The notes below the pieces were generated by a model. It did not search any database. It saw only the letters and a program-made list of their open reading frames with translations, and was not told the DNA's origin. The translations under genes were made by a program, and so were the position numbers. Of a stretch of 64,000 nt of DNA, positions 1,725 to 50,048 are shown piece after piece. Within the stretch, counting starts at the first letter, position 1. Each line of letters starts with the position of its first letter. The stretch comes from Planctomycetota bacterium (GTDB taxonomy: Bacteria > Planctomycetota > PLA2 > JAEUHO01), in NCBI GenBank assembly GCA_965223505.1, contig CBDCWP010000030.1, positions 160,001-224,000 of the forward strand, in the 5' to 3' direction.

Positions 1725-4700
1725 CTAGCCGCTCGCCGGCGGGACGCCGGGCGATGCCAACTGCGCCTCGAGCTCTGCAACTCGCTCGAGCTGTCGCTCG
1801 CGTTTCATCAGCTCGAACTGCCCGCGTGCACGGGCAAGTTCCTGCTTCGCACCCACGGGATCATTCGCCGCCGCAAGTGCCTGAGCGAGCTCCAGTCGCG
1901 TCGCGGCGGAGCCTTCCTCCGCCTTCGCGTCCGCCAGCTTCTCGACTGCCTTTCGCAACCAATCGCAAGCGCTGCGGAAGTCCGACGCTTGAAGCGCAAT
2001 TCGGCCGAGGCCGCGCCACGCGAAGCCGACGGCGTCGGGGTGCTTCTCCTCGGGAAAGGACTCGAGGAGACCTTCGTATGTCGCCTTCGCCGCGGCCGGA
2101 TCACCCGCAACGAGTTGCGCGTCGCCCAGAACGGCGGTGATGTGCCCCGCCGCGGACTTGTGAATACCGCCTTCGAGGAGCTTCAGCGCCGCTTGCGCAT
2201 ACGCAACCGCGTCGGCTCCGTCGCCTTCCTCGATTGCCAGCTCGGCGAGATTGCACTTCGCGACGGCGGTGCTGTAGCGGTCTCCCGCTTTCTCCCAAGT
2301 GGCGGCCGCCTGCTCGAAATTCACCCGCGCCATCGCGAGGTCGCCCATCGATTGCAGCACGAGCCCCAGGTTCACCTTGATGCCGACGACGCGTCGCGAA
2401 CCTGCCTTTTCTCCAACCTCGATCGCGCTCTCGTACGCGCGTTTGGCTCTCTCGAGATCACCTGCGAGGAGACGAGAGCTTCCGAGCCCCTTGGCAGCGC
2501 GGATCTGCTCGTCGACGATGCCGAGTTCGTCGGCACCCGCCTTCGCCTCCGAGAAGAGAGCGATTGCCTTCGAAAGTTCACCCTGACGACGGCAGATGCC
2601 TCCCTCGTAGATGTTCGCCAGGACGCCGATGCGGGTCGGCTCACCGCCGGCGCGGACAATACGTCGGGCCTCGCGAAATCGGTTTCTCGCGGCCTTGTTC
2701 TCGCCGCGGTCGCCATGGAGCTGCCCTTCGTCACAAAGCGCTTCCGCGAGCACCGCGCGACCCTCGGCGCCGGCGTCCCTCGCCATCTTGATGGCGTTCG
2801 CGAAGTGCGCTGCGGCGGCGGCGTGGTCGCCTTGCTTGTCGGCGATGACGCCCAGCCAGCGCGTCGCCTCGGCCTTCTCCACGTCACACGTCGACTCTGC
2901 CAGCATGGTGTCCGCCCACGCCTTCAGCGCCTCGTAGTTCGCGTTCTCATAGTGCACGTGCGCAACGCCCTTGTACGCCGTGGCGCGCGCCTCCAACGCC
3001 TGGTCGTCGTCACCTGTCGTGTTCGCAATGACCTGTTGAAAGATCGCAAGCGCTTCGTCGTGCTTGCCGCCGTAGAGCGCCTTCACCCCGTCGTCGACCG
3101 TCGCGTCCGGCGGAACCTCCACAAGCGTCTTCGGCTCGGCCTCCGGTCCCGCATCGCCCTCGACGGGCGTCTCCGACGCACCGGGCACGTCGTCGTCTGT
3201 CGGTTCTTCGGCCGCGGCCGGCTCTTCGCTCTCAGCGGCCGGCGCCGGCGTCTCTGTCTCCGCCGACTGCGTCTCCACCGCGTCAGGTGCCGCCTCCGTC
3301 GCAGCCTCCGGCCGTGACTCGGTCTCGGTCGCGGGCGTCTCGGTTGCGGGCGCCTCGCTATCGGGCGCCTTCTCTTCGACCATCGCCGGCTCGACGCCCA
3401 ACAGGGCCTGGACTTCGGCGATCGCCTTGTCCGTCTTGAAACTCCTCGCGCGGTCGAGCTGCTCTCGGGCGCGATCGAGCGCCCGCGTGGCGCCCTCCGT
3501 GTCGCCCGCCGCGTAGAGCGCCCGCGCGAGATCGAGCCGCGCCTCTGCCGCGTCCGCGCCGGCTCTCGCGTCGCCAAGGACGTCGACGGCCTTCACGAGC
3601 AGGCGCTTCGCCGCCTCGGCGTCTTTCTGTTCCAAACAGATGCGCCCCAACCCGGCGGTCGCCAAGCCGTGCGCTCGCATGTGCGGCTTGCCGGTGAACG
3701 TCTCGGGGATGCTCTCGTACGTCGTCCTGGCGGCATCCAGGTCCCCGGACGCGAGCTGCGCGTTGCCGAGATCGACCGTGACGAGTGCCCGGAGGTTCTC
3801 GTTCGCACCGCCTTCGAGCAGCGTCAGTGACGCGTTCGCCTCTTCGATCGCCTTGTCGTACGCGCCCGTCTCCGCAGAGAGCTGGGAGAGATTCGCCGTT
3901 GCCAGCGCCATGCCCGCGACGTCACCCGCCTTCTCCCATTCGGCGAGCGCTTGCTCGTTGTAGGCGCGCGCGGCTTCGAAATCGCCGGTCTTCGTCGCGA
4001 CGCTGGCGAGGCCGATCGACGGCCCGATGATGAACTCGGTCGAGCCCAGCTCCTCTCCGATCTCGAGCGCGTCCTCGAACGAGCGCTGGGCGCGGTCGTA
4101 CGCACCGAGCTCGTGATGGACGTTGCCGAGCGCGTTCGCCGATCGCGCGGTCTCGAGGGCGTAGCCGAGGATCTCGGCCGTCGTATGCGCGCTCGTGAAC
4201 AGCGCCGCCGCCTGGGACAGACGGCCTTCGCGACGCTCGATGCCGCCTTCGATGAGGTCCGCCAGGACCCCGATGCGCGTCCGCTTCTTCTTGGCACGGG
4301 CGACGCGGCGCGCTTCACGCAGCCGCTCCTTCGCCTCGTCCATCTCGCCGGCCTCGCGCAAGGCAAGCGCCTCGTCGCAGAGCGCCTCGGCCAAGACCTG
4401 ACGACCCTCCGAGCCGACCTCGCGGGCCGCCTCGATGGCCTTGCGTCGGTGCCGCGCCGCGGACTCCTTGTCTCCGCGCCGCTCGAGCGACAACGCGGTC
4501 CAACGTTCGGCCTCGGCCTCGTGCGCCTTCGTCGCCGCGACCTGCGTCATCGTCTCGGCGTACGCCTGCACCTTGTCGTAGGCGGTGAGCTGCAGGTGAA
4601 CGCGCGCCAGGCCGCACAGCGCCTGGAAGTGCGTCTCCTTGGACTCGTCGTCGTCGCCGTCCTTCGACGCCTCGACGAGTTTCTCGTATTCCGCGATCGC

Positions 4701-40599: not shown

Positions 40600-41464
40600 G
40601 ATCCCATGGGACTTCGACCACGATCGTCACGAGTTTGCCTGAGGGGAGCTTCTTGACAAAGCTCAATTGGAACGAATTGGAGTCTGCGTCGAAACCGAGG
40701 AAGCGACTAGCTCCTACTGTGATCCCCCAGCCAGCTGGGGATGGTGGACTGGGAACTCCGGGATAGCTCGGAGAAGAGATTGGATCGAAGTGCGGTTCCC
40801 AGTCCGCGAAGTCCCAGGGGCGAATCAACCTGATGAGTTCAATTATCAGTTGAACAATCCACCAATTCGAAGGCCGACTGCCGCCGGGACCAAAGCCATG
40901 AGGCCCGACGCTTGACGGCGCTCCCCCCCCACCCGCCCCCGCGTCAGGGGGATCGAACTCAGCCGGGCGCTTGAATGGAGGAGTCCATTCGGGAGGAACA
41001 TCTCCATGCTCCAGGATGTACTCAAGAACCCACTTCAACTCCTCAAAGAAAGTCAGTCCTTGCGGGATGACAGAGGTGGGTTGTGATTTGACCACTGAAG
41101 GGGTGCCCGGTCGGATCGGAGTCGGTTGCACCAACGGGCTGCCACCGCCGAAAGCGCTCGGAGCGGACCCAGGGGGCCCTCGGAACGGATCATGTCCCCC
41201 CGGTGCGAATGGATCTAGGAGCGGGCCAAAGGGGTCGGCAGGCTGGCCTTGGGGATCCGCAGACGGGCCCCAGGGGTTCGCAGACGGACCGCGTGGGGGA
41301 TCCCCGGACGGGCTGAAGGGGTCGCCGTCGTAGGGAGCATATGGATCTCGTAGCCCGAAGTCCGGATGCTTCGCCGGGTCAGTTCTCCCCCCAGGATACG
41401 TGGTATCACCGAGGTCAAAGCCCGGCGGTTGTCGTCTGATCGGGTCGCCCTGCGGATCGCCCAT
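40556..41464 (-). CDS. Pro/Gly-rich DPF-repeat protein with conserved C-terminal beta-rich domain
   Basis: DPF/DPY/NPW repeats; C-terminus aligns to 47536-47845. Confidence 0.65.
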   Translation of the reverse strand: MGDPQGDPIRRQPPGFDLGDTTYPGGRTDPAKHPDFGLRDPYAPYDGDPFSPSGDPPRGPSANPWGPSADPQGQPADPFGPLLDPFAPGGHDPFRGPPGSAPSAFGGGSPLVQPTPIRPGTPSVVKSQPTSVIPQGLTFFEELKWVLEYILEHGDVPPEWTPPFKRPAEFDPPDAGAGGGGAPSSVGPHGFGPGGSRPSNWWIVQLIIELIRLIRPWDFADWEPHFDPISSPSYPGVPSPPSPAGWGITVGASRFLGFDADSNSFQLSFVKKLPSGKLVTIVVEVPWDLDEASAFAGVGFDF

Positions 41465-41479
41465 TGTTCACCTGCAATT

Positions 41480-41812
41480 CTAGTACGGGCGCCACGTGGG
41501 ACGTTGCATCAGGAAGTGAACGCCGTCGGTGGAGTCGTCTGCCGCGTCGAACGAGTACTTGAAGCGGAGGATCTCCTTGCAGCCAGTGAGATCGACGTCG
41601 ATCGTCGCCACTGAGCTTGCTCCTGAGAACGAGCCGAGAGCCGTGAACGACGTGTCTTCGGCATTCCGGTGCTCGACGGCAATCGTGAATGTCGGCGACC
41701 CCACCATCTGGGTGATGTCCGCAACGAAGGTTGCCGCGAGGCCACCACGCGCGAACTCCGGGCTGTAGTACGGCGTGCCGTCCATCTCGAATATTGATGT
41801 ACCTACGATCAT
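41480..41812 (-). CDS. Small beta-rich hypothetical protein
   Basis: GGAGG RBS; first gene of a tightly spaced three-gene run. Confidence 0.65.
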   Translation of the reverse strand: MIVGTSIFEMDGTPYYSPEFARGGLAATFVADITQMVGSPTFTIAVEHRNAEDTSFTALGSFSGASSVATIDVDLTGCKEILRFKYSFDAADDSTDGVHFLMQRPTWRPY

Positions 41813-41940
41813 AGCTCTCTCCTCCAACGCACCCTGAGTGCGCAGCCGTGGCGTCGTTTATCAAATGGACACAGAGTGTCCGGTTGGCCGCTGGCGGAAG
41901 AAGCGCCGCGAAGAGAAGCCGAGTCCCCCTCGAACGTTCT

Positions 41941-43338
41941 GGCAGAGCAACGTTCTTTCTGTAAATCGCTGAGCGGTTGATCAAGCGTCGTCCCTCGGCA
42001 AGTACCTCCGTCCGGTTTCCCATTCCTCGCTGATCTCGATGAGCACCGCGCTTGCGAGCCGCAGCAAGGACGCTTCGTTCGGAAACAATCCGGCGACGCG
42101 AGTGCGGCGGCGGATCTGCTGATTCAGGTTCTCGAGGCTGTTGGTGGTGCGAAGGCGCTTGCGCTGCGCTTCGTTCAGGCCGAGATCGAACACGGTGAAG
42201 CCCTGCGGAATGTTCTCTTCGGCCCAGCGCGCCAGGTCGGGCGCGGGCTTGTCCCACTTCTTCACGAAGGCCTTGAGCTTCTCTTCGGCCTCGCGACGCG
42301 ACGTCGCATTGAACGCGGCGCGAAGGTCAGCGGCAACGTCGCGTCGAAGCTTCTGGCGCGGAACGTAGCTCTGCGCGTTCTGCTGCAGGTGGAACTGGCA
42401 GCGCTGCCAGGCCACGCCGGCGAACCGCGCCGCCAGCGCGGCCGCAATGCCCTTGTGGCCGTCGCTGGTGATGAGCTCGACGCCGTGAAGGCCGCGATCC
42501 TGGAGAGAAGCGAGGAACTCGCGCCAATGGACCTCGGCCTCCGAGAGGCTCACGCTCGTTCCCAGCACGCTGCGCTTGCCGTGAGAATCGACGCCGATGG
42601 CGATCAGCACAGCGCAGTCGCGCACCGATCCGCCGTGGCGCACCTTCTCGTAGCGAGCGTCGAGTACGAGGTACTTGAACGCGCCGAGCGGACGTGTGCG
42701 CCAGCGCTCGAGCTCCTCGTCGAGCAGCGCAGCTGCTCGAGACACGCTCGTGGAGCTGATCTCCAGGCCGTTGCAAAGCACCTTCGTGATCGCCTCGACA
42801 CGCCGCGTCGAGACGCCCTGGACGTACATCTCCGCCAGGGCCAGCGTGAGCGCTCTCTCGCTTCGCTGGCCGCGTTCGAGGCTGGAGGGGTAGAACGTGT
42901 CGCCGCCCTCGACGTCGCGAACCTGGGGCACCTGGACGTCGATCTCGCCCAAGCGGGTTCTGACGCGCTTGCGCTTGAAGCCGTTGGCGTAGCCGCGGCG
43001 CTGATCCGTGCGTTCGTGGGGCTCGGCGCCGAGGAAGGCACTGCGTTCGACCTTCATGGCCTCGTTCACCAGCACCCGCATCGCCTCAGCCATGCCGTCG
43101 AACCCGTTCTCGCTGAGCGCTTCCAGTGCGTCGCCCCAAGGCGTACGCTGTTCGTGGTGGGTCACGTCGTTCCTCCTTTGCGTGGTGTCGTTACCTGCAA
43201 AGGTACGGCGTTGATCCGCCACTCAGTTCGCCCCGGGAGATGGCGGCGCGCCCGCTTCGCTTGAATCAGCTAGCTGATTCAAGCGAAGCGAGCGCCTCTC
43301 CTCCGGGGAGCCATTTACAGAAAGAACGGTACACCCTC
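41941..43338 (-). mobile_element. IS256-family element, copy 1
   Basis: Imperfect TIRs sharing CGTTCTTTCTGTAAAT; 8-bp TSD AACGTTCT at 41933-41940 and 43339-43346. Confidence 0.95.
41981..43222 (-). CDS. IS256-family DDE transposase
   Basis: MYVQGVSTRRV, LDARYEKVR, SDGHKG, WQRCQFH, RTTNSLE. Confidence 0.95.
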   Translation of the reverse strand: MADQRRTFAGNDTTQRRNDVTHHEQRTPWGDALEALSENGFDGMAEAMRVLVNEAMKVERSAFLGAEPHERTDQRRGYANGFKRKRVRTRLGEIDVQVPQVRDVEGGDTFYPSSLERGQRSERALTLALAEMYVQGVSTRRVEAITKVLCNGLEISSTSVSRAAALLDEELERWRTRPLGAFKYLVLDARYEKVRHGGSVRDCAVLIAIGVDSHGKRSVLGTSVSLSEAEVHWREFLASLQDRGLHGVELITSDGHKGIAAALAARFAGVAWQRCQFHLQQNAQSYVPRQKLRRDVAADLRAAFNATSRREAEEKLKAFVKKWDKPAPDLARWAEENIPQGFTVFDLGLNEAQRKRLRTTNSLENLNQQIRRRTRVAGLFPNEASLLRLASAVLIEISEEWETGRRYLPRDDA

Positions 43339-43697
43339 AACGTTCTTGCCTCCTGCGTACCAGTTGCTGCATCTATGACGGTAGCGCCTGCTGCGGGGTC
43401 GTCAACGGCCATTTGCGCGGCGGGACGAAAAACTAGTCAGAGCAAAGAGTGCGCCAGCAGCCATTTCTCCAAGAGAGTTTGCAACAACTGGTACTTGAGG
43501 AAGCTCGAACGAGTTCGAGAGACTACTGGCGCGACGGCACTGTAACGAACCAGGACGACGCACAAAGCGATTTGCGACCAAGGGGTAATCCGAAAGTACA
43601 GAGATGAGATGAGAAGGCCGGTCTCCCCTGTCCCGCAGTCGCGGTAAACCGCGCTGCAAATGAAACACGGGCTTGACGGCCCAAAGGGAGAACCGGC

Positions 43698-44747
43698 ATG
43701 ACGAATCGTATCACCGAGACAATCGGGGTGGATCTGGGGGACCGCTATTCGGCGTACTGCGTGATCGACGAGGGTTCGGGTGAGATGCAGGGCGAGGGGC
43801 GGATCCGTACGACGCCCAAGGGGTTTCGCGAGTTCTTCGCCAAGCGAGCGAGCTCGCGAGTGGTGCTCGAGGTCGGGACTCACTCGCCGTGGACGAGTCG
43901 CATCATTGCAGAGAGCTGCGAGCAGACGTTGGTGGCCAACCCGCGGCAATTGGGGTTCATCTTCAATAGCGCGCGCAAGTCGGATCGCGTGGACGCGCGA
44001 TTGCTTGCGCGCGTGGGACGCCTGGACGCGTCGTTGTTGTGTCCGATCCGGCATCGCGGACTGAAGGCACAGCAGGACCTGGCGGTGGTTCGTGCTCGGG
44101 CTGCGTTGGTATCGGCACGCACGAAATTGGTGAACAGCTTGCGCGGATTGACCAAGAGCTTCGGCGCCCGTATTCCGAAACAAGCCGCCAAGTCGATCAG
44201 CACGGAGACGCGCTCGCGCGTACCCGAAGAGTTGCGGGATGCCGTACGACCGCTCCTCGTTTCGATCGAGGGTCTCACGGGCGAGATCAAGAAGTACGAC
44301 AAGTTGATCGACGATCTAGCGACGACGCACTATCCCGAGATCGGGGCACTGACGCAGGTGGCCGGCGTGGGCAATCTGACGGCGTTGACATTCGTGCTGA
44401 CGTTGGAGGACCCGGCCCACTTCGCCGAGAGCCGCGACGTGGGGGCGTTCCTGGGACTGACTCCCAAGCGCGACCAATCAGGTGAGACCGACAAACAGCT
44501 GCGCATCTCGAAAGCCGGCGACAAGGTGCTTCGCACGCTACTGGTTCAGTGTGCTCACTACATTCTTGGGCGCAACGGACCACCGAGTGACCTGAAGCGC
44601 TACGGCGAACGGGTTGCCTCACGGGGCGGAAAGATCGCGAAGCGCAAGGCGGCGATCGCCGTGGCACGCAAGTTGGCGGTGCTTCTGCACTCGCTATGGC
44701 GAAGCGGCGAAGCGTACGTGCCCGAGCGAAAGGCCGTTTCCGCGTAG
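43698..44747 (+). CDS. IS110-family DEDD recombinase/transposase
   Basis: GVDLG, VLEVG, KSDRVDA, GVG, GLTP..QSG, AVARKL. Confidence 0.95.
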   Translation: MTNRITETIGVDLGDRYSAYCVIDEGSGEMQGEGRIRTTPKGFREFFAKRASSRVVLEVGTHSPWTSRIIAESCEQTLVANPRQLGFIFNSARKSDRVDARLLARVGRLDASLLCPIRHRGLKAQQDLAVVRARAALVSARTKLVNSLRGLTKSFGARIPKQAAKSISTETRSRVPEELRDAVRPLLVSIEGLTGEIKKYDKLIDDLATTHYPEIGALTQVAGVGNLTALTFVLTLEDPAHFAESRDVGAFLGLTPKRDQSGETDKQLRISKAGDKVLRTLLVQCAHYILGRNGPPSDLKRYGERVASRGGKIAKRKAAIAVARKLAVLLHSLWRSGEAYVPERKAVSA

Positions 44748-44799
44748 CGGCTGCCTTGAATAGCCACGAACGCGGCGACAACACCAGATTTCACGCTTC

Positions 44800-44945
44800 A
44801 TCCCGAGTCCGGGCGACTGCGGTGTACCTGGCGGACGCAATGCGACGTCGCTACTGAGATTGCAGCGCCCCGGCTCACTCGGATCTCCTCATGCACCGGA
44901 CCTCAGATGCAGGTCCACCAAGAGTGCGTATAGAAGCCTGGGCAG
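44800..44945 (+). ncRNA. Putative bridge RNA / seekRNA
   Basis: Two stem-loops carrying short matches to target flanks and to the element's ends; boundaries approximate. Confidence 0.7.
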
Positions 44946-44985
44946 GAGCGTGCCTCTGGAAACGTGGCCGCCGACGCGGCTCGAC

Positions 44986-44991
44986 TTGACA
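44986..44991 (+). promoter_or_regulatory. Outward-facing -35 box in the IS right end
   Basis: Perfect TTGACA abutting the right subterminal IR. Confidence 0.55.
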
Positions 44992-45025
44992 AGATCGGCC
45001 TTCTCATAGAAGCCAGAGCATTTTC

Positions 45026-45075
45026 TCACCATTAGCGCTAGCCAAGACACTCACCATTAGCGCTAGCCAAGACAC
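45026..45075 (+). repeat. 25-bp tandem duplication
   Basis: TCACCATTAGCGCTAGCCAAGACAC twice. Confidence 0.9.
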
Positions 45076-46046
45076 TTTGAGGCCACATTGGCGCAGCGAC
45101 TCCGATACTCAGGATCGTGAACCATGAGGTAGCGGTGCTGTACTTGGCGTTTGGTGGCGGTCGACGCCGTGCAGTTGGTGTAGCGCGTTATCGCTGCGTA
45201 GGTGAGGCCGGCAAGCTCACGCAAGAGACCGACCGTAAGCACCGGCCATGCATCCCGCTTTCGCGTTCCGCTCACTGTGCACCGAAGCTCGAGGCCGCGA
45301 GACTCCTCCGCCACGACCGCCAGCACTCGCGATGCCGCCACGTACGGCAGGCCGGGCTTGGTTCCGTCCGCCAGACGCGCCTTACGCAGCATCCACGACA
45401 TTACGCGCGAGGGTGCTGCGCCGACAAGCGAGTCCCAGCAGTCATCGCCGTGCGCCGCCGTCGACAGACGCAATTCGATGACTGCGCACTCCTCCGATGA
45501 GATATCCCGTCCGAACCGTCGTTGATACGCCAGCGCGCGTTCGGTGGGACGACATCGTCCTATGCGCGCGTCGATCCACTCGCCCCAGAGCCACGGGGGC
45601 CGACGCCGGCGCGTGAGATGGAACGCACTGCAGAATGGGTATTCTCGCGAGGCCGTGACCAGGCGCGCGTCGAGCGCATTCTGGTCGATGTATCGAACAA
45701 GGACTGTCGCGTATCTCTCCGAGCGCACCGGCTTTGACAGAAAGCGACTCCGGAACAGCGGCCCGTCTCTCCTACGAGTGCGGTTGAAGTACCTCACGTA
45801 GAGATTCTGGACACGCTGCATCACACCCGAGAGCTCGCCGGTCGTGCTTTCGAGGAGCAGATGGAAGTGCGTTGACAGAATGGCGTACGAGACGATCCGG
45901 ATTCGGCCGCGCCGTACCTCCCGTGCGAGCAGCGACAGGAAGAACCGCGCGTCTTGCCTCGTCTCGAAGACGGTCCTACGCGCGAGCCCACGGTTCATCA
46001 CGTGGTGCAGGAGCCCGGGGTGGTCGACTCGTTGACGTCTCGGCAT
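45063..46046 (-). CDS. HUH Y1 transposase-like (RAYT-type) protein with C-terminal HTH
   Basis: MPRRQR..HHVMNRG, HFHLL (HUH), GPLFRSRF, RYIDQN (catalytic Tyr). Confidence 0.88.
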   Translation of the reverse strand: MPRRQRVDHPGLLHHVMNRGLARRTVFETRQDARFFLSLLAREVRRGRIRIVSYAILSTHFHLLLESTTGELSGVMQRVQNLYVRYFNRTRRRDGPLFRSRFLSKPVRSERYATVLVRYIDQNALDARLVTASREYPFCSAFHLTRRRRPPWLWGEWIDARIGRCRPTERALAYQRRFGRDISSEECAVIELRLSTAAHGDDCWDSLVGAAPSRVMSWMLRKARLADGTKPGLPYVAASRVLAVVAEESRGLELRCTVSGTRKRDAWPVLTVGLLRELAGLTYAAITRYTNCTASTATKRQVQHRYLMVHDPEYRSRCANVASKCLG

Positions 46047-46124
46047 GAGGTTCGCCGGGACATCGCGCGAACGTCGCTGCCGGTCACGCTATTGGTGAGA
46101 AATTGCTCTGGCTCGGTACGGGTG

Positions 46125-46177
46125 TGGAGCCCCGGGTCGGGTTCGAACCGACGACCCCCGCTTTACGAAAGCGGTGC
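46125..46177 (-). repeat. Middle att site: tRNA-Thr 3' 53 nt
   Basis: Exact copy of 49974-50026. Confidence 0.93.
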
Positions 46178-46271
46178 CTGTCAACACCAGATGGGTCTCT
46201 TGAGTCAATGAGCACAGTCCACGACGTGCGGACTAGGACTACGGGAACATGAGGGTTTGGGGGGCGTCAAG
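46178..46271. repeat. Conserved att-arm sequence, copy A
   Basis: 86/94 identical to 39267-39360. Confidence 0.88.
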
Positions 46272-46308
46272 ACAGGGGCGTAGGGGCAAGCCGACGTACG
46301 ACGCGAGG

Positions 46309-47475
46309 CTAGCCCTTCTTCCCGGCAGGCCAAGCTGCGTCAAAGTGCTTTCTGGCGTAGCGGCGTAACGCTGCTTCCACCTCGTCGCTCACGCTTCTCT
46401 CGATGTCGGAGTCGTCATGTCGGCTCTGCGATGCGACCCAAGTTCGAGTGACATGCTTGCGCACGTCAGCGCGCGATGGCGCAAGGACCCGGCGTTTCGC
46501 GATCATGGCACTCACGTCCAATCGACCAGACTCACCCCCCAAGATCACCGCTGCCAGTCTCTCTGCCGCGTCCGTCAGACGCTTCGGCTCCACTAGCGCG
46601 TCCGGCGATTGTCCCGCGATGGCCATCAATCCTTCGTATAGAAGATGCGAGCGAATCTCGCGCTCTCTCCGAGGGTCCAGCGCGGCGACACCACTCGTCG
46701 CCGACGCAATGACTCTTTGGATTCTCGACGGCCACGCACTGGCTTGTATCTCAACGGGACGACGCTTCATGCGGATCTCGTCCCCGGTCCCCGCCTTGCG
46801 CGCATGAGCCGAGAGTGGGAGTCCCGTAGCACGATCGATGCGCATGGCCGCTCGCGTCGAGCGCAGAATCACCTGGTTCGTCTTCTCGTCGACTACGACC
46901 TTCTTTCTCTTAAAGAGATCCTCGTCCAGCCATGTCGCGCCGACGCCAGAATCGACCCCCATCCCCACGAAGAGGCGTATCCGGTCGTTCTCCTTTTCGT
47001 CTACAAGGATCTTGAATGTGACGACCACTGGCGAGAGCTCAACTAGCGGGATCTTCCACTCTTTGCAGAGACTGCTAATCACGCCTTGCGCCCTCGCTGT
47101 CTCGGCACGAATCAATTTCCATGCGACTGAGAACGCGTATACGGGCTTACCACCTGCAACCGCAACCATACGGGTCCTATCGGCTACAAACCACGACACG
47201 AAGTTGGAGTCGCCATCGGCGACTCTGTGGGAAACGCCATGCAGATCGCCCTCGCGAAACACCTCGAACACGCTGTTCATTGCGGGCGTGGACGATGCGC
47301 TTCCCGGATTGACGCTGAGCGTGTACGCAACATGAATGCGCTCTTGCTGCTCAAAGCGATCTACGAGTTCCTTTCGGGCGGCGGCGGCGTCGGAGGCCTC
47401 GTCCGCACTGACGACGGCGACCGCGAGCAGAAGAACAGCCAGCGAACGAAGCACAATCATGGTCGTCAGTTTCAC
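46309..47475 (-). CDS. Uncharacterised secreted protein (paralogue of 39406-40599)
   Basis: Signal peptide; RFEQQERIHV, ADRTR, IDRATGL..AHARKAG. Confidence 0.75.
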   Translation of the reverse strand: MKLTTMIVLRSLAVLLLAVAVVSADEASDAAAARKELVDRFEQQERIHVAYTLSVNPGSASSTPAMNSVFEVFREGDLHGVSHRVADGDSNFVSWFVADRTRMVAVAGGKPVYAFSVAWKLIRAETARAQGVISSLCKEWKIPLVELSPVVVTFKILVDEKENDRIRLFVGMGVDSGVGATWLDEDLFKRKKVVVDEKTNQVILRSTRAAMRIDRATGLPLSAHARKAGTGDEIRMKRRPVEIQASAWPSRIQRVIASATSGVAALDPRREREIRSHLLYEGLMAIAGQSPDALVEPKRLTDAAERLAAVILGGESGRLDVSAMIAKRRVLAPSRADVRKHVTRTWVASQSRHDDSDIERSVSDEVEAALRRYARKHFDAAWPAGKKG

Positions 47476-47535
47476 CCCGCGCGGTTTACCGAGTTTCGGT
47501 AGGAAGTCTTGGGTGGCCCTCGCGCCAGCAGCCCC

Positions 47536-47845
47536 CTAAACGTCAAAGTCGATGCCGACAAAGAACGGGATCTTCCCGTCTTCCGGCAGCTCGACTACAA
47601 CGTAGACCTTCGCACCGTTCGCAAGTCTATAGACTATGCCGACGCTATTACTGGAAACTCCGAAGAAACCGATTGGACTCGCTCCCGGTGATATGGGGAC
47701 TCCCCATTTTCCTACGTACGGCGGCTCCTCCGGGGGAGGAAAGCCAAAAGCAGTGGGCCCAAAGTAACCAGGTTTGCTTTTGCCACTCCAGCCGAACATT
47801 TCCCACAGGAGATCCGTTAACCATTCGATGAGCCACGCATTTGCT
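47536..47845 (-). pseudogene. 3' remnant of a paralogue of 40556-41464, truncated by IS256
   Basis: WLIEWL..WG....GAS..GF..SNS..L.NG..V.VVVELP..FVGIDFDV aligns with the C-terminus of 40556-41464. Confidence 0.7.
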
Positions 47846-49243
47846 GGCAGAGCAACGTTCTTTCTGTAAATCGCTGAGCGGTTGATCAAGCGTCGTCCCT
47901 CGGCAAGTACCTCCGTCCGGTTTCCCATTCCTCGCTGATCTCGATGAGCACCGCGCTTGCGAGCCGCAGCAAGGACGCTTCGTTCGGAAACAATCCGGCG
48001 ACGCGAGTGCGGCGGCGGATCTGCTGATTCAGGTTCTCGAGGCTGTTGGTGGTGCGAAGGCGCTTGCGCTGCGCTTCGTTCAGGCCGAGATCGAACACGG
48101 TGAAGCCCTGCGGAATGTTCTCTTCGGCCCAGCGCGCCAGGTCGGGCGCGGGCTTGTCCCACTTCTTCACGAAGGCCTTGAGCTTCTCTTCGGCCTCGCG
48201 ACGCGACGTCGCATTGAACGCGGCGCGAAGGTCAGCGGCAACGTCGCGTCGAAGCTTCTGGCGCGGAACGTAGCTCTGCGCGTTCTGCTGCAGGTGGAAC
48301 TGGCAGCGCTGCCAGGCCACGCCGGCGAACCGCGCCGCCAGCGCGGCCGCAATGCCCTTGTGGCCGTCGCTGGTGATGAGCTCGACGCCGTGAAGGCCGC
48401 GATCCTGGAGAGAAGCGAGGAACTCGCGCCAATGGACCTCGGCCTCCGAGAGGCTCACGCTCGTTCCCAGCACGCTGCGCTTGCCGTGAGAATCGACGCC
48501 GATGGCGATCAGCACAGCGCAGTCGCGCACCGATCCGCCGTGGCGCACCTTCTCGTAGCGAGCGTCGAGTACGAGGTACTTGAACGCGCCGAGCGGACGT
48601 GTGCGCCAGCGCTCGAGCTCCTCGTCGAGCAGCGCAGCTGCTCGAGACACGCTCGTGGAGCTGATCTCCAGGCCGTTGCAAAGCACCTTCGTGATCGCCT
48701 CGACACGCCGCGTCGAGACGCCCTGGACGTACATCTCCGCCAGGGCCAGCGTGAGCGCTCTCTCGCTTCGCTGGCCGCGTTCGAGGCTGGAGGGGTAGAA
48801 CGTGTCGCCGCCCTCGACGTCGCGAACCTGGGGCACCTGGACGTCGATCTCGCCCAAGCGGGTTCTGACGCGCTTGCGCTTGAAGCCGTTGGCGTAGCCG
48901 CGGCGCTGATCCGTGCGTTCGTGGGGCTCGGCGCCGAGGAAGGCACTGCGTTCGACCTTCATGGCCTCGTTCACCAGCACCCGCATCGCCTCAGCCATGC
49001 CGTCGAACCCGTTCTCGCTGAGCGCTTCCAGTGCGTCGCCCCAAGGCGTACGCTGTTCGTGGTGGGTCACGTCGTTCCTCCTTTGCGTGGTGTCGTTACC
49101 TGCAAAGGTACGGCGTTGATCCGCCACTCAGTTCGCCCCGGGAGATGGCGGCGCGCCCGCTTCGCTTGAATCAGCTAGCTGATTCAAGCGAAGCGAGCGC
49201 CTCTCCTCCGGGGAGCCATTTACAGAAAGAACGGTACACCCTC
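47846..49243 (-). mobile_element. IS256-family element, copy 2 (no TSD)
   Basis: Same ends, length and transposase as copy 1; flanks CATTTGCT and GATGGGAG differ. Confidence 0.95.
47886..49127 (-). CDS. IS256-family DDE transposase
   Basis: Translation identical to 41981-43222. Confidence 0.95.
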   Translation of the reverse strand: MADQRRTFAGNDTTQRRNDVTHHEQRTPWGDALEALSENGFDGMAEAMRVLVNEAMKVERSAFLGAEPHERTDQRRGYANGFKRKRVRTRLGEIDVQVPQVRDVEGGDTFYPSSLERGQRSERALTLALAEMYVQGVSTRRVEAITKVLCNGLEISSTSVSRAAALLDEELERWRTRPLGAFKYLVLDARYEKVRHGGSVRDCAVLIAIGVDSHGKRSVLGTSVSLSEAEVHWREFLASLQDRGLHGVELITSDGHKGIAAALAARFAGVAWQRCQFHLQQNAQSYVPRQKLRRDVAADLRAAFNATSRREAEEKLKAFVKKWDKPAPDLARWAEENIPQGFTVFDLGLNEAQRKRLRTTNSLENLNQQIRRRTRVAGLFPNEASLLRLASAVLIEISEEWETGRRYLPRDDA

Positions 49244-49973: not shown

Positions 49974-50048
49974 TGGAGCCCCGGGTCGGGTTCGAACCGA
50001 CGACCCCCGCTTTACGAAAGCGGTGCTCTACCACTGAGCTACCAGGGC
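49974..50048 (-). tRNA. tRNA-Thr(CGT)
   Basis: GCCCTGGTAGCTCAGTGGTAGAGCACCGCTTTCGTAAAGCGGGGGTCGTCGGTTCGAACCCGACCCGGGGCTCCA folds as a cloverleaf, anticodon CGT, encoded CCA. Confidence 0.97.

Follow-up and report, generated by a model that had tools for sequence, protein, structure and literature searches.

The stretch of DNA considered here, hereafter the window, is a 64,000-nt piece of a Planctomycetota genome; coordinates given without a contig name are positions in it, and genome-wide searches covered the whole 5.15-Mb assembly to which it belongs. The window contains a gene for an HUH Y1 protein resembling the repetitive extragenic palindrome (REP)-associated tyrosine transposases (RAYTs), and this gene is bracketed by two 33-bp terminal inverted repeats (TIRs). 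The right-hand repeat (TIR-R) is intact, and the left-hand repeat (TIR-L) is divided by an insertion sequence (IS) that carries a recombinase gene and, in its 3' non-coding region, a predicted guide RNA of the seekRNA or bridge-RNA kind. We assign the insert to the IS110 family as an element of the IS1111 type. Table 1 lists the features of the locus.

Table 1. Features of the divided repeat, the insertion sequence and the Y1 gene. A slash marks a junction or the edge of the core, and slashes within parentheses separate alternative bases; sTIR, subterminal inverted repeat.
Feature	Position	Strand	Basis or remark
Outer 8 bp of TIR-L (GTACAGAG)	43596..43603	+	Severed by the IS; final AG is the shared core; 7/8 versus reverse complement of 46112-46119
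IS1111-type insertion sequence, 1409 bp	43604..45012	+	Alignment with relative L003; layout AGATGRG-sTIR...sTIR-RGA/AG
Left sTIR ATGAGAAGGCCG	43609..43620	+	12/12 complementary to 44996-45007
Recombinase gene, 349 amino acids, open	43698..44747	+	DEDD RuvC-like domain, Transposase_20 domain, GLTPKRDQSG motif
Predicted seekRNA/bridge-RNA scaffold	44803..44950	+	Conserved structure with covariation, 3' non-coding region
Right-target guide core CTGGC (predicted)	44828..44832	+	Complementary to top-strand G/CCAG (43603 and 45013-45016)
Left-target guide TACTGAG (predicted)	44852..44858	+	Same sense as target TACAGAG (43597-43603), 6/7
Donor guide ATAGAAG (predicted)	44930..44936	+	Identical to IS right end plus core (45006-45012)
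TTGACA, -35-like box	44986..44991	+	CTTGAC conserved in nearly all aligned relatives
Right sTIR CGGCCTTCTCAT	44996..45007	+	Partner of 43609-43620
Inner 25 bp of TIR-L	45013..45037	+	23/25 versus reverse complement of 46087-46111
RAYT-like HUH Y1 gene, 327 amino acids	45063..46046	-	PF01797, HUH and Y motifs, helical C-terminal extension of about 190 amino acids
Intact TIR-R, unoccupied sister site	46087..46119	-	Inward reading GTACCGAG/CCAGAGCAATTTCTCACCAATAGCG

The insertion sequence and the repeat that it divides

Read directly, the left junction is ...CCGAAAGTACAGAG/ATGAGATGAGAAGGCCGG... and the right junction ...CGGCCTTCTCATAGAAG/CCAGAGCATTTTCTCACCATTAGCG.... When the insert is removed, 43596-43603 (GTACAGAG) and 45013-45037 (CCAGAGCATTTTCTCACCATTAGCG) join around a single AG core into a 33-mer that agrees at 30 of 33 positions with the reverse complement of 46087-46119. 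To the right of the insert 23 of 25 positions match, which amounts to a normal, unbroken inverted repeat flanking the Y1 gene. The informative part lies to the left, where eight bases extend the repeat with seven matches; by our own arithmetic, such a continuation would arise by chance with a probability of about 4e-4 (~25/65536, for a fixed position and equal base frequencies). Similarity stops at GTAC on either side. The 33-bp repeat occurs at two places only in the assembly, both flanking the Y1 gene. At locus L047, in another genome, GTACCGAGCCAGAGCAA stands uninterrupted on both sides of the Y1 gene and reads straight through the junction, with 17 bases identical to the intact repeat of the window. 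A genome search with the motif TACNGAGCCAG was uninformative, returning two matches, the sister repeat and an unrelated site on contig C10.

The recombinase matches PF01548 (E 3.7e-12) and PF02371 (E 4.8e-20), both above the Pfam cut-off, and scores 208 bits against the NCBIfam model NF033542, 'IS110 family RNA-guided transposase' (cut-off 140); in an alignment with seven relatives, residues D12, E58, D96 and D99 are invariant. As in the IS1111 family, the longer non-coding part lies downstream of the gene (265 nt, versus 94 nt upstream). Both junctions contain the AG core, so the element can equally be written as 43602-45010, the Hall-lab convention. The 12-bp sTIRs lie 5 bp from either end in the convention of Table 1 and 7 and 3 bp from the ends in the other, where the core goes to the left end and the terminal extensions are AGATGAG (7 bp) and AGA (3 bp). 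PMC11187229 gives the IS1111 rule as sTIRs of 11-13 bp with extensions of 7 bp on the left and 3 bp on the right, and the window element conforms to it.

A total of 118 locus entries of related elements were oriented; 31 of the 401 sampled genomes of the phylum match at E <= 1e-40, and 80 loci come from metagenome contigs. Canonical ends were found in 93 of the 118 entries, most of them with the layout given in Table 1 for the window element. The one relative found by a protein-only search of genome contigs, L003, comes from a Planctomycetota-labelled metagenome-assembled genome; its IS, 74-76% identical, aligns exactly to both ends, and the flanks beyond are unrelated. The ends are fixed because three independent lines agree, namely the L003 alignment, the sTIR layout and the uninterrupted homologous repeats. 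The preliminary description of this DNA had placed an IS110-family element with these ends and this target inside one inverted repeat of an HUH Y1 unit, opposite an intact sister, and had stated that excising it restores the repeat with one AG core. All of this was recovered on recomputation: the family from the Pfam domains, the NF033542 score and the sTIR layout, the ends and target from the L003 alignment, sTIR spacing and L047 repeats, and the setting from the repeat match together with L047.

Since the IS is single-copy in the window's genome, comparison with other copies there was impossible, and relatives from other genomes were used. The only other trace of such an element in that genome is an IS1111-type left-end remnant on contig C34 (228287-228490, L002), 73% identical over the first 180 bases, which keeps the left end and about 33 codons and has the left flank ...GACACCG/AG; several repeats with the same kind of head as the Y1 repeats lie within 10 kb of it. 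Contigs of four public sequencing runs were inspected over 42800-46600, and none of them skips exactly 43604-45012 or contains a circle joint; public runs X1 and X2 may be the sample behind this assembly. A joint from 43338 to 46125 in one run, supported by only 28 letters on one of its sides, was regarded as a repeat artefact. A look for RNA runs among the public records returned none.

The Y1 protein matches PF01797 with 28.1 bits (Pfam cut-off 23) and the NCBIfam RAYT equivalog NF047646 with 57.3 bits, under the cut-off of 80. The HFH motif (residues 60-62, with H60 and H62) and Y119 are invariant in 20 homologs. An AlphaFold2 (AF2) model of the protein (predicted local distance difference test score, pLDDT, 88) has as its best match in the PDB 4er8_A (E 2.2e-5), in which the E. 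coli RAYT is complexed with a REP hairpin; in this Foldseek search, made with the entire protein, matches to the N-terminal HUH domain predominate. The C-terminal half is all-helical in the model and contains conserved WMxRKAxLADGT and GLLRxLAGL motifs, and a Pfam search of the protein at E <= 10 gave, in the C-terminal part, no match to Bac_DnaA_C, HTH_23, HTH_28 or any other family. The TIRs lie 29 and 41 bp from the ends of the open reading frame. The 33-bp repeat has no evident hairpin on reading (no fold was run), and it is not a dispersed REP family.

RAYT-like genes with terminal inverted repeats were named TIRtron or TIRYT by Di Nocera 2013 (PMC3733652). In Quentin 2018 (PMC6006769), TIRYTs are mostly placed in subclass 2.1 and have a C-terminal helix-turn-helix of the Bac_DnaA_C, HTH_23 or HTH_28 type. 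GGGGWSAS is the majority repeat motif of TIRYTs, and repeats without it are also listed in PMC3733652. The window's repeats do not contain GGGGWSAS; their head is GTACNGAGCCAG. The preliminary description spoke of a RAYT-like unit; TIRYT/TIRtron-like suits it better than the name of a classical RAYT/REP system does.

In the window's genome the Y1 gene has a single copy. Homologs are present in 155 of the 401 sampled genomes of the phylum, often as several paralogs per genome. All 29 Y1 loci whose flanks are long enough have an inverted-repeat pair of their own around the gene, and most heads are GTACGGAGCCAG-like. A strict regular expression finds a TA[CG][CG]G[AT] head at both outer ends in 16 of the 29; at most of the remaining loci the head, inspected by eye, is shifted, one-sided or split by an IS. 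The repeat bodies differ between paralogs. A conserved layout of gene and repeat pair, with bodies that differ from one paralog to the next, is typical of protein-repeat co-evolution.

Further repeats in the window's genome share the head of the Y1 repeats and have no Y1 gene of that family in the genome: ATACCGAGCCCGGTTTTCTGTTCGATATTC, in at least seven copies, and GATACGGTGCCAGGCTAGCGATTGTCTCG, in four (e.g. C5:26145, C8:54545, C26:148372, C34:229362 and C41:119584; C5:15536, C38:34516, C44:130183 and C44:134754). They may be orphans of lost Y1 units. At the left Y1 repeat itself, positions 45025-45074 consist of a 25-bp unit (CTCACCATTAGCGCTAGCCAAGACA) present twice in tandem without a mismatch; the duplication begins inside the repeat and overlaps the Y1 stop codon, and the unit is present in a single copy at the right Y1 repeat.

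A predicted guide RNA in the 3' non-coding region

When the 3' ends of the relatives are aligned, a conserved scaffold is seen to alternate with variable windows. RNAalifold, applied to 34 sequences, gives three helices with 98% of cells paired and compensatory changes in 10 of 16 pairs. The long helix pairs GGGCG.ACUGC with GCAGCGCCC and closes an internal loop that holds a small hairpin, and the second helix, GCAC with GUGC, is invariant. None of 500 column shuffles reached the observed values, and slid controls were 19-48% paired.

Three of the variable windows follow the sequences that they are predicted to read. The left guide is the 7 nt directly 5' of ATTGCAGC, or AT(T/G)GCAGC, and in the relatives it equals the left flank plus core. 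Among 31 elements parsed by script, 16 have a left guide that agrees with their own target at 7 of 7 positions (among them L003, L010, L015, L025, L026, L041 and L042), and in the alignment the same was found by eye for L006 and L022. The right guide is the window after GACUGCG, complementary to the core and right flank, with matches of 8-9 nt in L010, L020, L022 and L041 and of 6 nt in L003 and L006. Over the 31 elements, the mean fit to the own target is 5.6 of 7 on the left and 5.9 nt on the right, versus 3.0 and 2.6 for the targets of other elements. The donor window adjoins GAGUGCG and covaries with the right end of the IS, being ATACAAG in L003, ATGGAAG in most relatives and ATAAAAG in L029. 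In the window element the complement of the top strand lies 5' of the complement of the bottom strand, and the same order is reported for IS1111 seekRNAs (PMC11187229).

The window's own guides score 6 on the left and 5 on the right, values reached (>=6 and >=5) by 2.6% and 7.2% of mismatched pairings, respectively. No site in the window's genome matches the guide-derived 11-mer TACTGAGCCAG at 11/11, and only 22 sites match it at 10/11, TIR-R being one of them, which favors the assignment. The guides agree better with the family consensus (GTACGGAGCCAGG...) than with this copy. Tuning to a sister family may have preceded the arrival of the element, guide or target may have drifted after insertion, or only about 11 positions may matter. 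The preliminary description had the element programmed against the terminal repeats of the Y1 unit. What stands is that guides can be located, that their fit beats that of unrelated pairings, and that relatives are aimed at the repeats of other Y1 genes; because the guides fit this copy at 6 of 7 positions plus 5 nt, 'programmed' applies to the repeat family and not perfectly to this copy.

A side observation concerns the same region in the relative L005 (genome G167, contig C7; oriented positions 2608-3579), where the guide-RNA region, comprising the final 325 bp of the IS, is present in three head-to-tail copies. The copy junctions read ...CATAGAAG/TCCGGGT..., and GAG/TCCGGG is also found within the IS, where the RNA scaffold begins; this suggests that the right end recombined with an internal look-alike of the target.

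Related elements, proposed mechanism and alternatives

Two further relatives connect elements of this kind with Y1-associated repeats. In L006, from another genus of the same family (genome G025), an IS 62% identical to that of the window lies in the upstream repeat of a Y1 paralog 37% identical to the window's, at the homologous position. The restored repeat reads GTACGG/AGGCGGGAAAAGTTGTTGCGGGCT, versus GTACGGAGGCGGGAAGAGTTGTTGCAGGCT in its intact partner; the guides are TACGGAG (7/7) and CCCGCC (6 nt), and the IS reads toward the gene, as in the window. The genome G004 contains an IS about 42% identical, with the target GGGTGTC/AG/ACACCTTGCAC at two sites, and this target sequence is that of repeats flanking a Y1 gene on another contig of the same genome. 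There GGTGTCAGACACCTT has 247 copies (the reversed control has 0), most of them in inverted pairs with a spacing of 30-100 bp, and it also flanks the Y1 gene at C61:13967-14932. From these features we take the 247-copy family to be a REPIN/RAYT-like system in the window's phylum.

Among the six closest elements (the window's, L003, L006, G167, L007 and L132), every left guide fits the pattern (T/C)A(C/G)(G/T)GAG. The right guides vary from element to element and are similar to different repeat bodies. Examples of right-guide targets are CCAGG..., GCGGG... and TCAGGG..., and deeper branches have GGTGTC/AG/ACACC.

Other targets were seen among the relatives. L015, L041 (G187) and L023 (G262) target GGGGAC/AG, which fits the published GGGGWSAS motif of TIRYTs; for these insertions in G187 and G262 no Pfam Y1 match was found in the same contig region, and one Y1 repeat of G187 is only similar (CCACGGGGACGC...). 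A large group of elements 51-55% identical, from soil metagenome contigs (L076-L110 and others), all target a hairpin-like ...TAAYC/AG/GAVYTAG..., for example CTAACC-AG-GAGTTAG, and have guides that match this word; the target is probably another repeat family.

We consider it likely, with a probability of roughly 0.85, that the insert is an RNA-guided element of the IS1111 type that uses the outer head of the Y1-gene terminal repeat as its target and that it belongs to a lineage tuned to Y1-associated repeats. If the element is active at present, it would excise as a circle joining ...CATAGA-AG-ATGAG... (...CTTCTCATAGA-AG-ATGAGATGAG...). Circle formation would bring the TTGACA box upstream of the left end, 17 bp (spacing read from the sequence) from a GAAGAT hexamer that spans the junction, and the two may form a promoter from which the guide RNA would be expressed. 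The recombinase, loaded with this RNA, would then recombine the circle junction with the target at the AG core, the CTGGC segment pairing with the top strand to the right of the core and the TACTGAG segment with the bottom strand to the left. The target is the conserved outer head (GTACNGAG/CCAG) of one 33-bp TIR, and the other TIR is a vacant copy of the same site. The closest relatives hold the left guide, which would read the conserved head, nearly constant and have a right guide that varies with the repeat body. The head GTACGGAG, conserved across paralogs and genera, is presumably also recognized by the Y1 proteins, which would act on these repeats. A bolder proposal, which we advance tentatively and would not yet call probable, is that an IS1111 lineage present in sampled genomes of the window's phylum has turned into a specialized hyperparasite that exploits Y1 (RAYT/TIRYT) systems, with a left guide nearly constant on GTACGGAG and a right guide rewritten for each repeat family.

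Several observations weigh against the reading that the insert is an RNA-guided element of a lineage tuned to Y1-associated repeats. At the window's own site, position 4 of the left guide is T, where the occupied repeat has A and the sister repeat C; the right guide (...ACCTGGCG) matches G plus CCAG only and then predicts CCAGGTAC where the target has CCAGAGCA. On the guide-derived 11-mer, 21 other sites in the window's genome tie with TIR-R at 10/11. A score over 15 positions puts the repeats at 10/15, with 188 other genome sites higher. No second insertion in this genome confirms a site preference, and a search of 41000-49000 with Rfam 15, a release that may lack such families, gave no match to a bridge-RNA or seekRNA family at E <= 1. 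Among the relatives, a Y1 gene is present in the available flank at only 3 of 117 loci, many of which are short contigs; the three copies in G167 occupy a dispersed repeat whose head is similar, with no Y1 gene within 1.5 kb, and more distant relatives target unrelated sequences. L024, one of the three loci with a Y1 gene, has its IS 52 nt upstream of a Y1 start; it was considered as a further case and set aside, as no repeat pair or shared core was found.

The tied and better-scoring sites and the scarcity of Y1 genes in the flanks of relatives are also what a coincidental landing would lead one to expect, with an IS that reads a short generic word (approximately TACNGAG/CCAG) and has no specialization on Y1-gene repeats; consistent with this, the degenerate head motif is not enriched in the genome (58 found, versus about 92 expected from base composition). 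We nevertheless regard coincidence as improbable, given that L006 occupies the homologous position in the repeat of a different paralog in another genus with its right guide retuned, that a third lineage (G004) targets a repeat family flanking a Y1 gene in its own genome, and that the left guides of all six closest elements fit the conserved repeat head. Of still lower probability is an account in which the 33-bp repeats are not element ends but regulatory or structural repeats of a domesticated Y1 gene, the IS using a conserved host repeat as a safe site. A single-copy gene with just two flanking repeat copies would suit it, as would the score under the RAYT equivalog cut-off and the argument of Bertels 2017 (PMC5581495) that RAYTs behave as vertically inherited, domesticated genes. 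It accords poorly with a gene and repeat pair at 29 of 29 loci, with bodies differing per paralog and several paralogs per genome, and with the spread of the G004 repeat to 247 copies, often in close inverted doublets; moreover, it would alter the label of the target and not the mechanism of the IS.

The true left end of the IS might also lie further left, near 43590, the 7/8 continuation of the repeat then being due to chance. This idea draws on the blastn alignment with L003, which extends 14 bases past 43604 with 10 of 14 matching. Related left targets account for this extension: the window has TACAGAG and L003 has TAGTGAG, each of which matches its own left guide. In addition, the element begins 7 bp before the sTIR in most of the 93 relatives whose ends are canonical, and the sequence outside it is unrelated, and the uninterrupted repeats of L047 read through the junction. 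We give this displaced end very little credence, the least of the alternatives considered, and retain the interpretation of an RNA-guided element inserted at the head of a Y1-gene terminal repeat.

The surroundings of the locus contain other mobile sequences. A 53-bp fragment at 46125-46177, 5 bp from the intact Y1 repeat, is identical to the 3' part of tRNA-Thr(CGT), the intact gene of which lies at 49974-50048 on the minus strand (duplicated part, 49974-50026). The two copies bracket 3.8 kb that contain an open reading frame of 388 amino acids with no Pfam match and an IS256-like element, and they look like the att duplication left by an island that integrated in the tRNA gene and has since decayed. 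That Y1 units generally lie beside tRNA genes was considered and dropped, tRNAs being within the flank at only 1 of 30 loci. Two near-identical IS256-like copies, at 41951-43328 and 47856-49233, encode a 413-amino-acid Mutator-family transposase (PF00872) and have 20-bp terminal inverted repeats; each has an internal 48-nt perfect palindrome (43248-43295 and 49153-49200), which gives weak, spurious miRNA matches in Rfam.

Comparison with known systems

The preliminary description suggested that the target class might be undescribed. In the wide sense this is overstated, because IS110 and IS1111 elements aimed at REPs, which are the repeats of RAYT systems, at Tn21 ends and at attC sites have long been known. 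Published work (PMC11187229; PMC11208160; PMC2817692; PMC12288879) reports ISPa11, ISPpu9, ISPpu10 and IS621 in REPs, IS4321 and IS5075 in terminal repeats of the Tn21 family, and ISKpn4 and ISPst6 in attC sites. Neither PMC3733652 nor PMC6006769 speaks of IS110 insertions in TIRYT repeats (the term IS110 is absent from the former and occurs once in the latter, in another context), and a literature search, with subscription journals outside its scope, found no paper linking IS110/IS1111 elements to TIRYT repeats or bridge RNA to RAYTs. The novelty is modest: a new IS1111 family member in a little-studied phylum, with no new mechanism.

The value of the locus lies elsewhere. The window is a self-documenting example, with an occupied and an empty target 1 kb apart, and the related elements allow guides to be compared directly with their targets. 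Guide retargeting that has occurred in nature is informative for work on RNA-guided IS110/IS1111 recombinases as programmable tools for genome insertion. If the proposed specialization as a hyperparasite is correct, the pairing of IS and repeat would amount to repeated reprogramming of guides in nature, directed at a family of targets that co-evolves, and the insertion points would mark functionally constrained positions in little-studied Y1 repeats. The conserved head of the repeats of this widespread Y1 family (155 of 401 genomes) is also a starting point for asking what these proteins cut.

On the side of the target, the closest match is with the TIRtrons or TIRYTs, which resemble the window's unit in having a single Y1 gene with HUH and Y motifs, a long C-terminal extension and non-hairpin inverted repeats at 29-41 bp, with few or no dispersed repeat copies (PMC3733652; PMC6006769). 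The window's unit differs in its head, GTAC(G/C)G(A/T)GCCAG versus the published GGGGWSAS, and in a Pfam result without a Bac_DnaA_C or HTH match.

On the side of the insertion sequence, ISPa11 shares with the window element a DEDD recombinase, subterminal inverted repeats and a long 3' non-coding region for a seekRNA in which the top-strand complement precedes that of the bottom strand (PMC11187229), and its target too is a repeat of a Y1 (RAYT) system, namely the REPs of Pseudomonas aeruginosa. Its seekRNA has been shown experimentally; that of the window element is predicted. ISPa11 further differs in that it targets a genome-wide REP family, unlike the non-hairpin TIR of the window with only two copies flanking the Y1 gene, and in its host lineage, the window element being from Planctomycetota. 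IS4321 and IS5075 resemble the window element as IS1111-type elements at a fixed position in a TIR of another element, with the second TIR available and empty; their host is a DDE transposon of the Tn3 family, and in the window it is an HUH Y1 (RAYT-like) unit.

ISPpu9 and ISPpu10 of Pseudomonas putida and IS621 of E. coli show the same site- and orientation-specific insertion in repeats associated with tyrosine transposases, and the same RNA-guided recombination at a 2-nt core (PMC12288879; PMC11208160). IS621 differs in belonging to the IS110 group, with its bridge RNA in the left end, and all three target high-copy REPs, to which the relative in G004 is a closer analog than the window's case. 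The habit of Pseudomonas and E. coli elements of landing in tyrosine-transposase repeats recurs in a phylum for which such systems are scarcely documented and extends to low-copy TIRs flanking the Y1 gene itself; the target type seen in the window, the gene-flanking TIRs of a TIRYT-like unit, is an extension of the known REP and terminal-repeat habit and does not found a new class.

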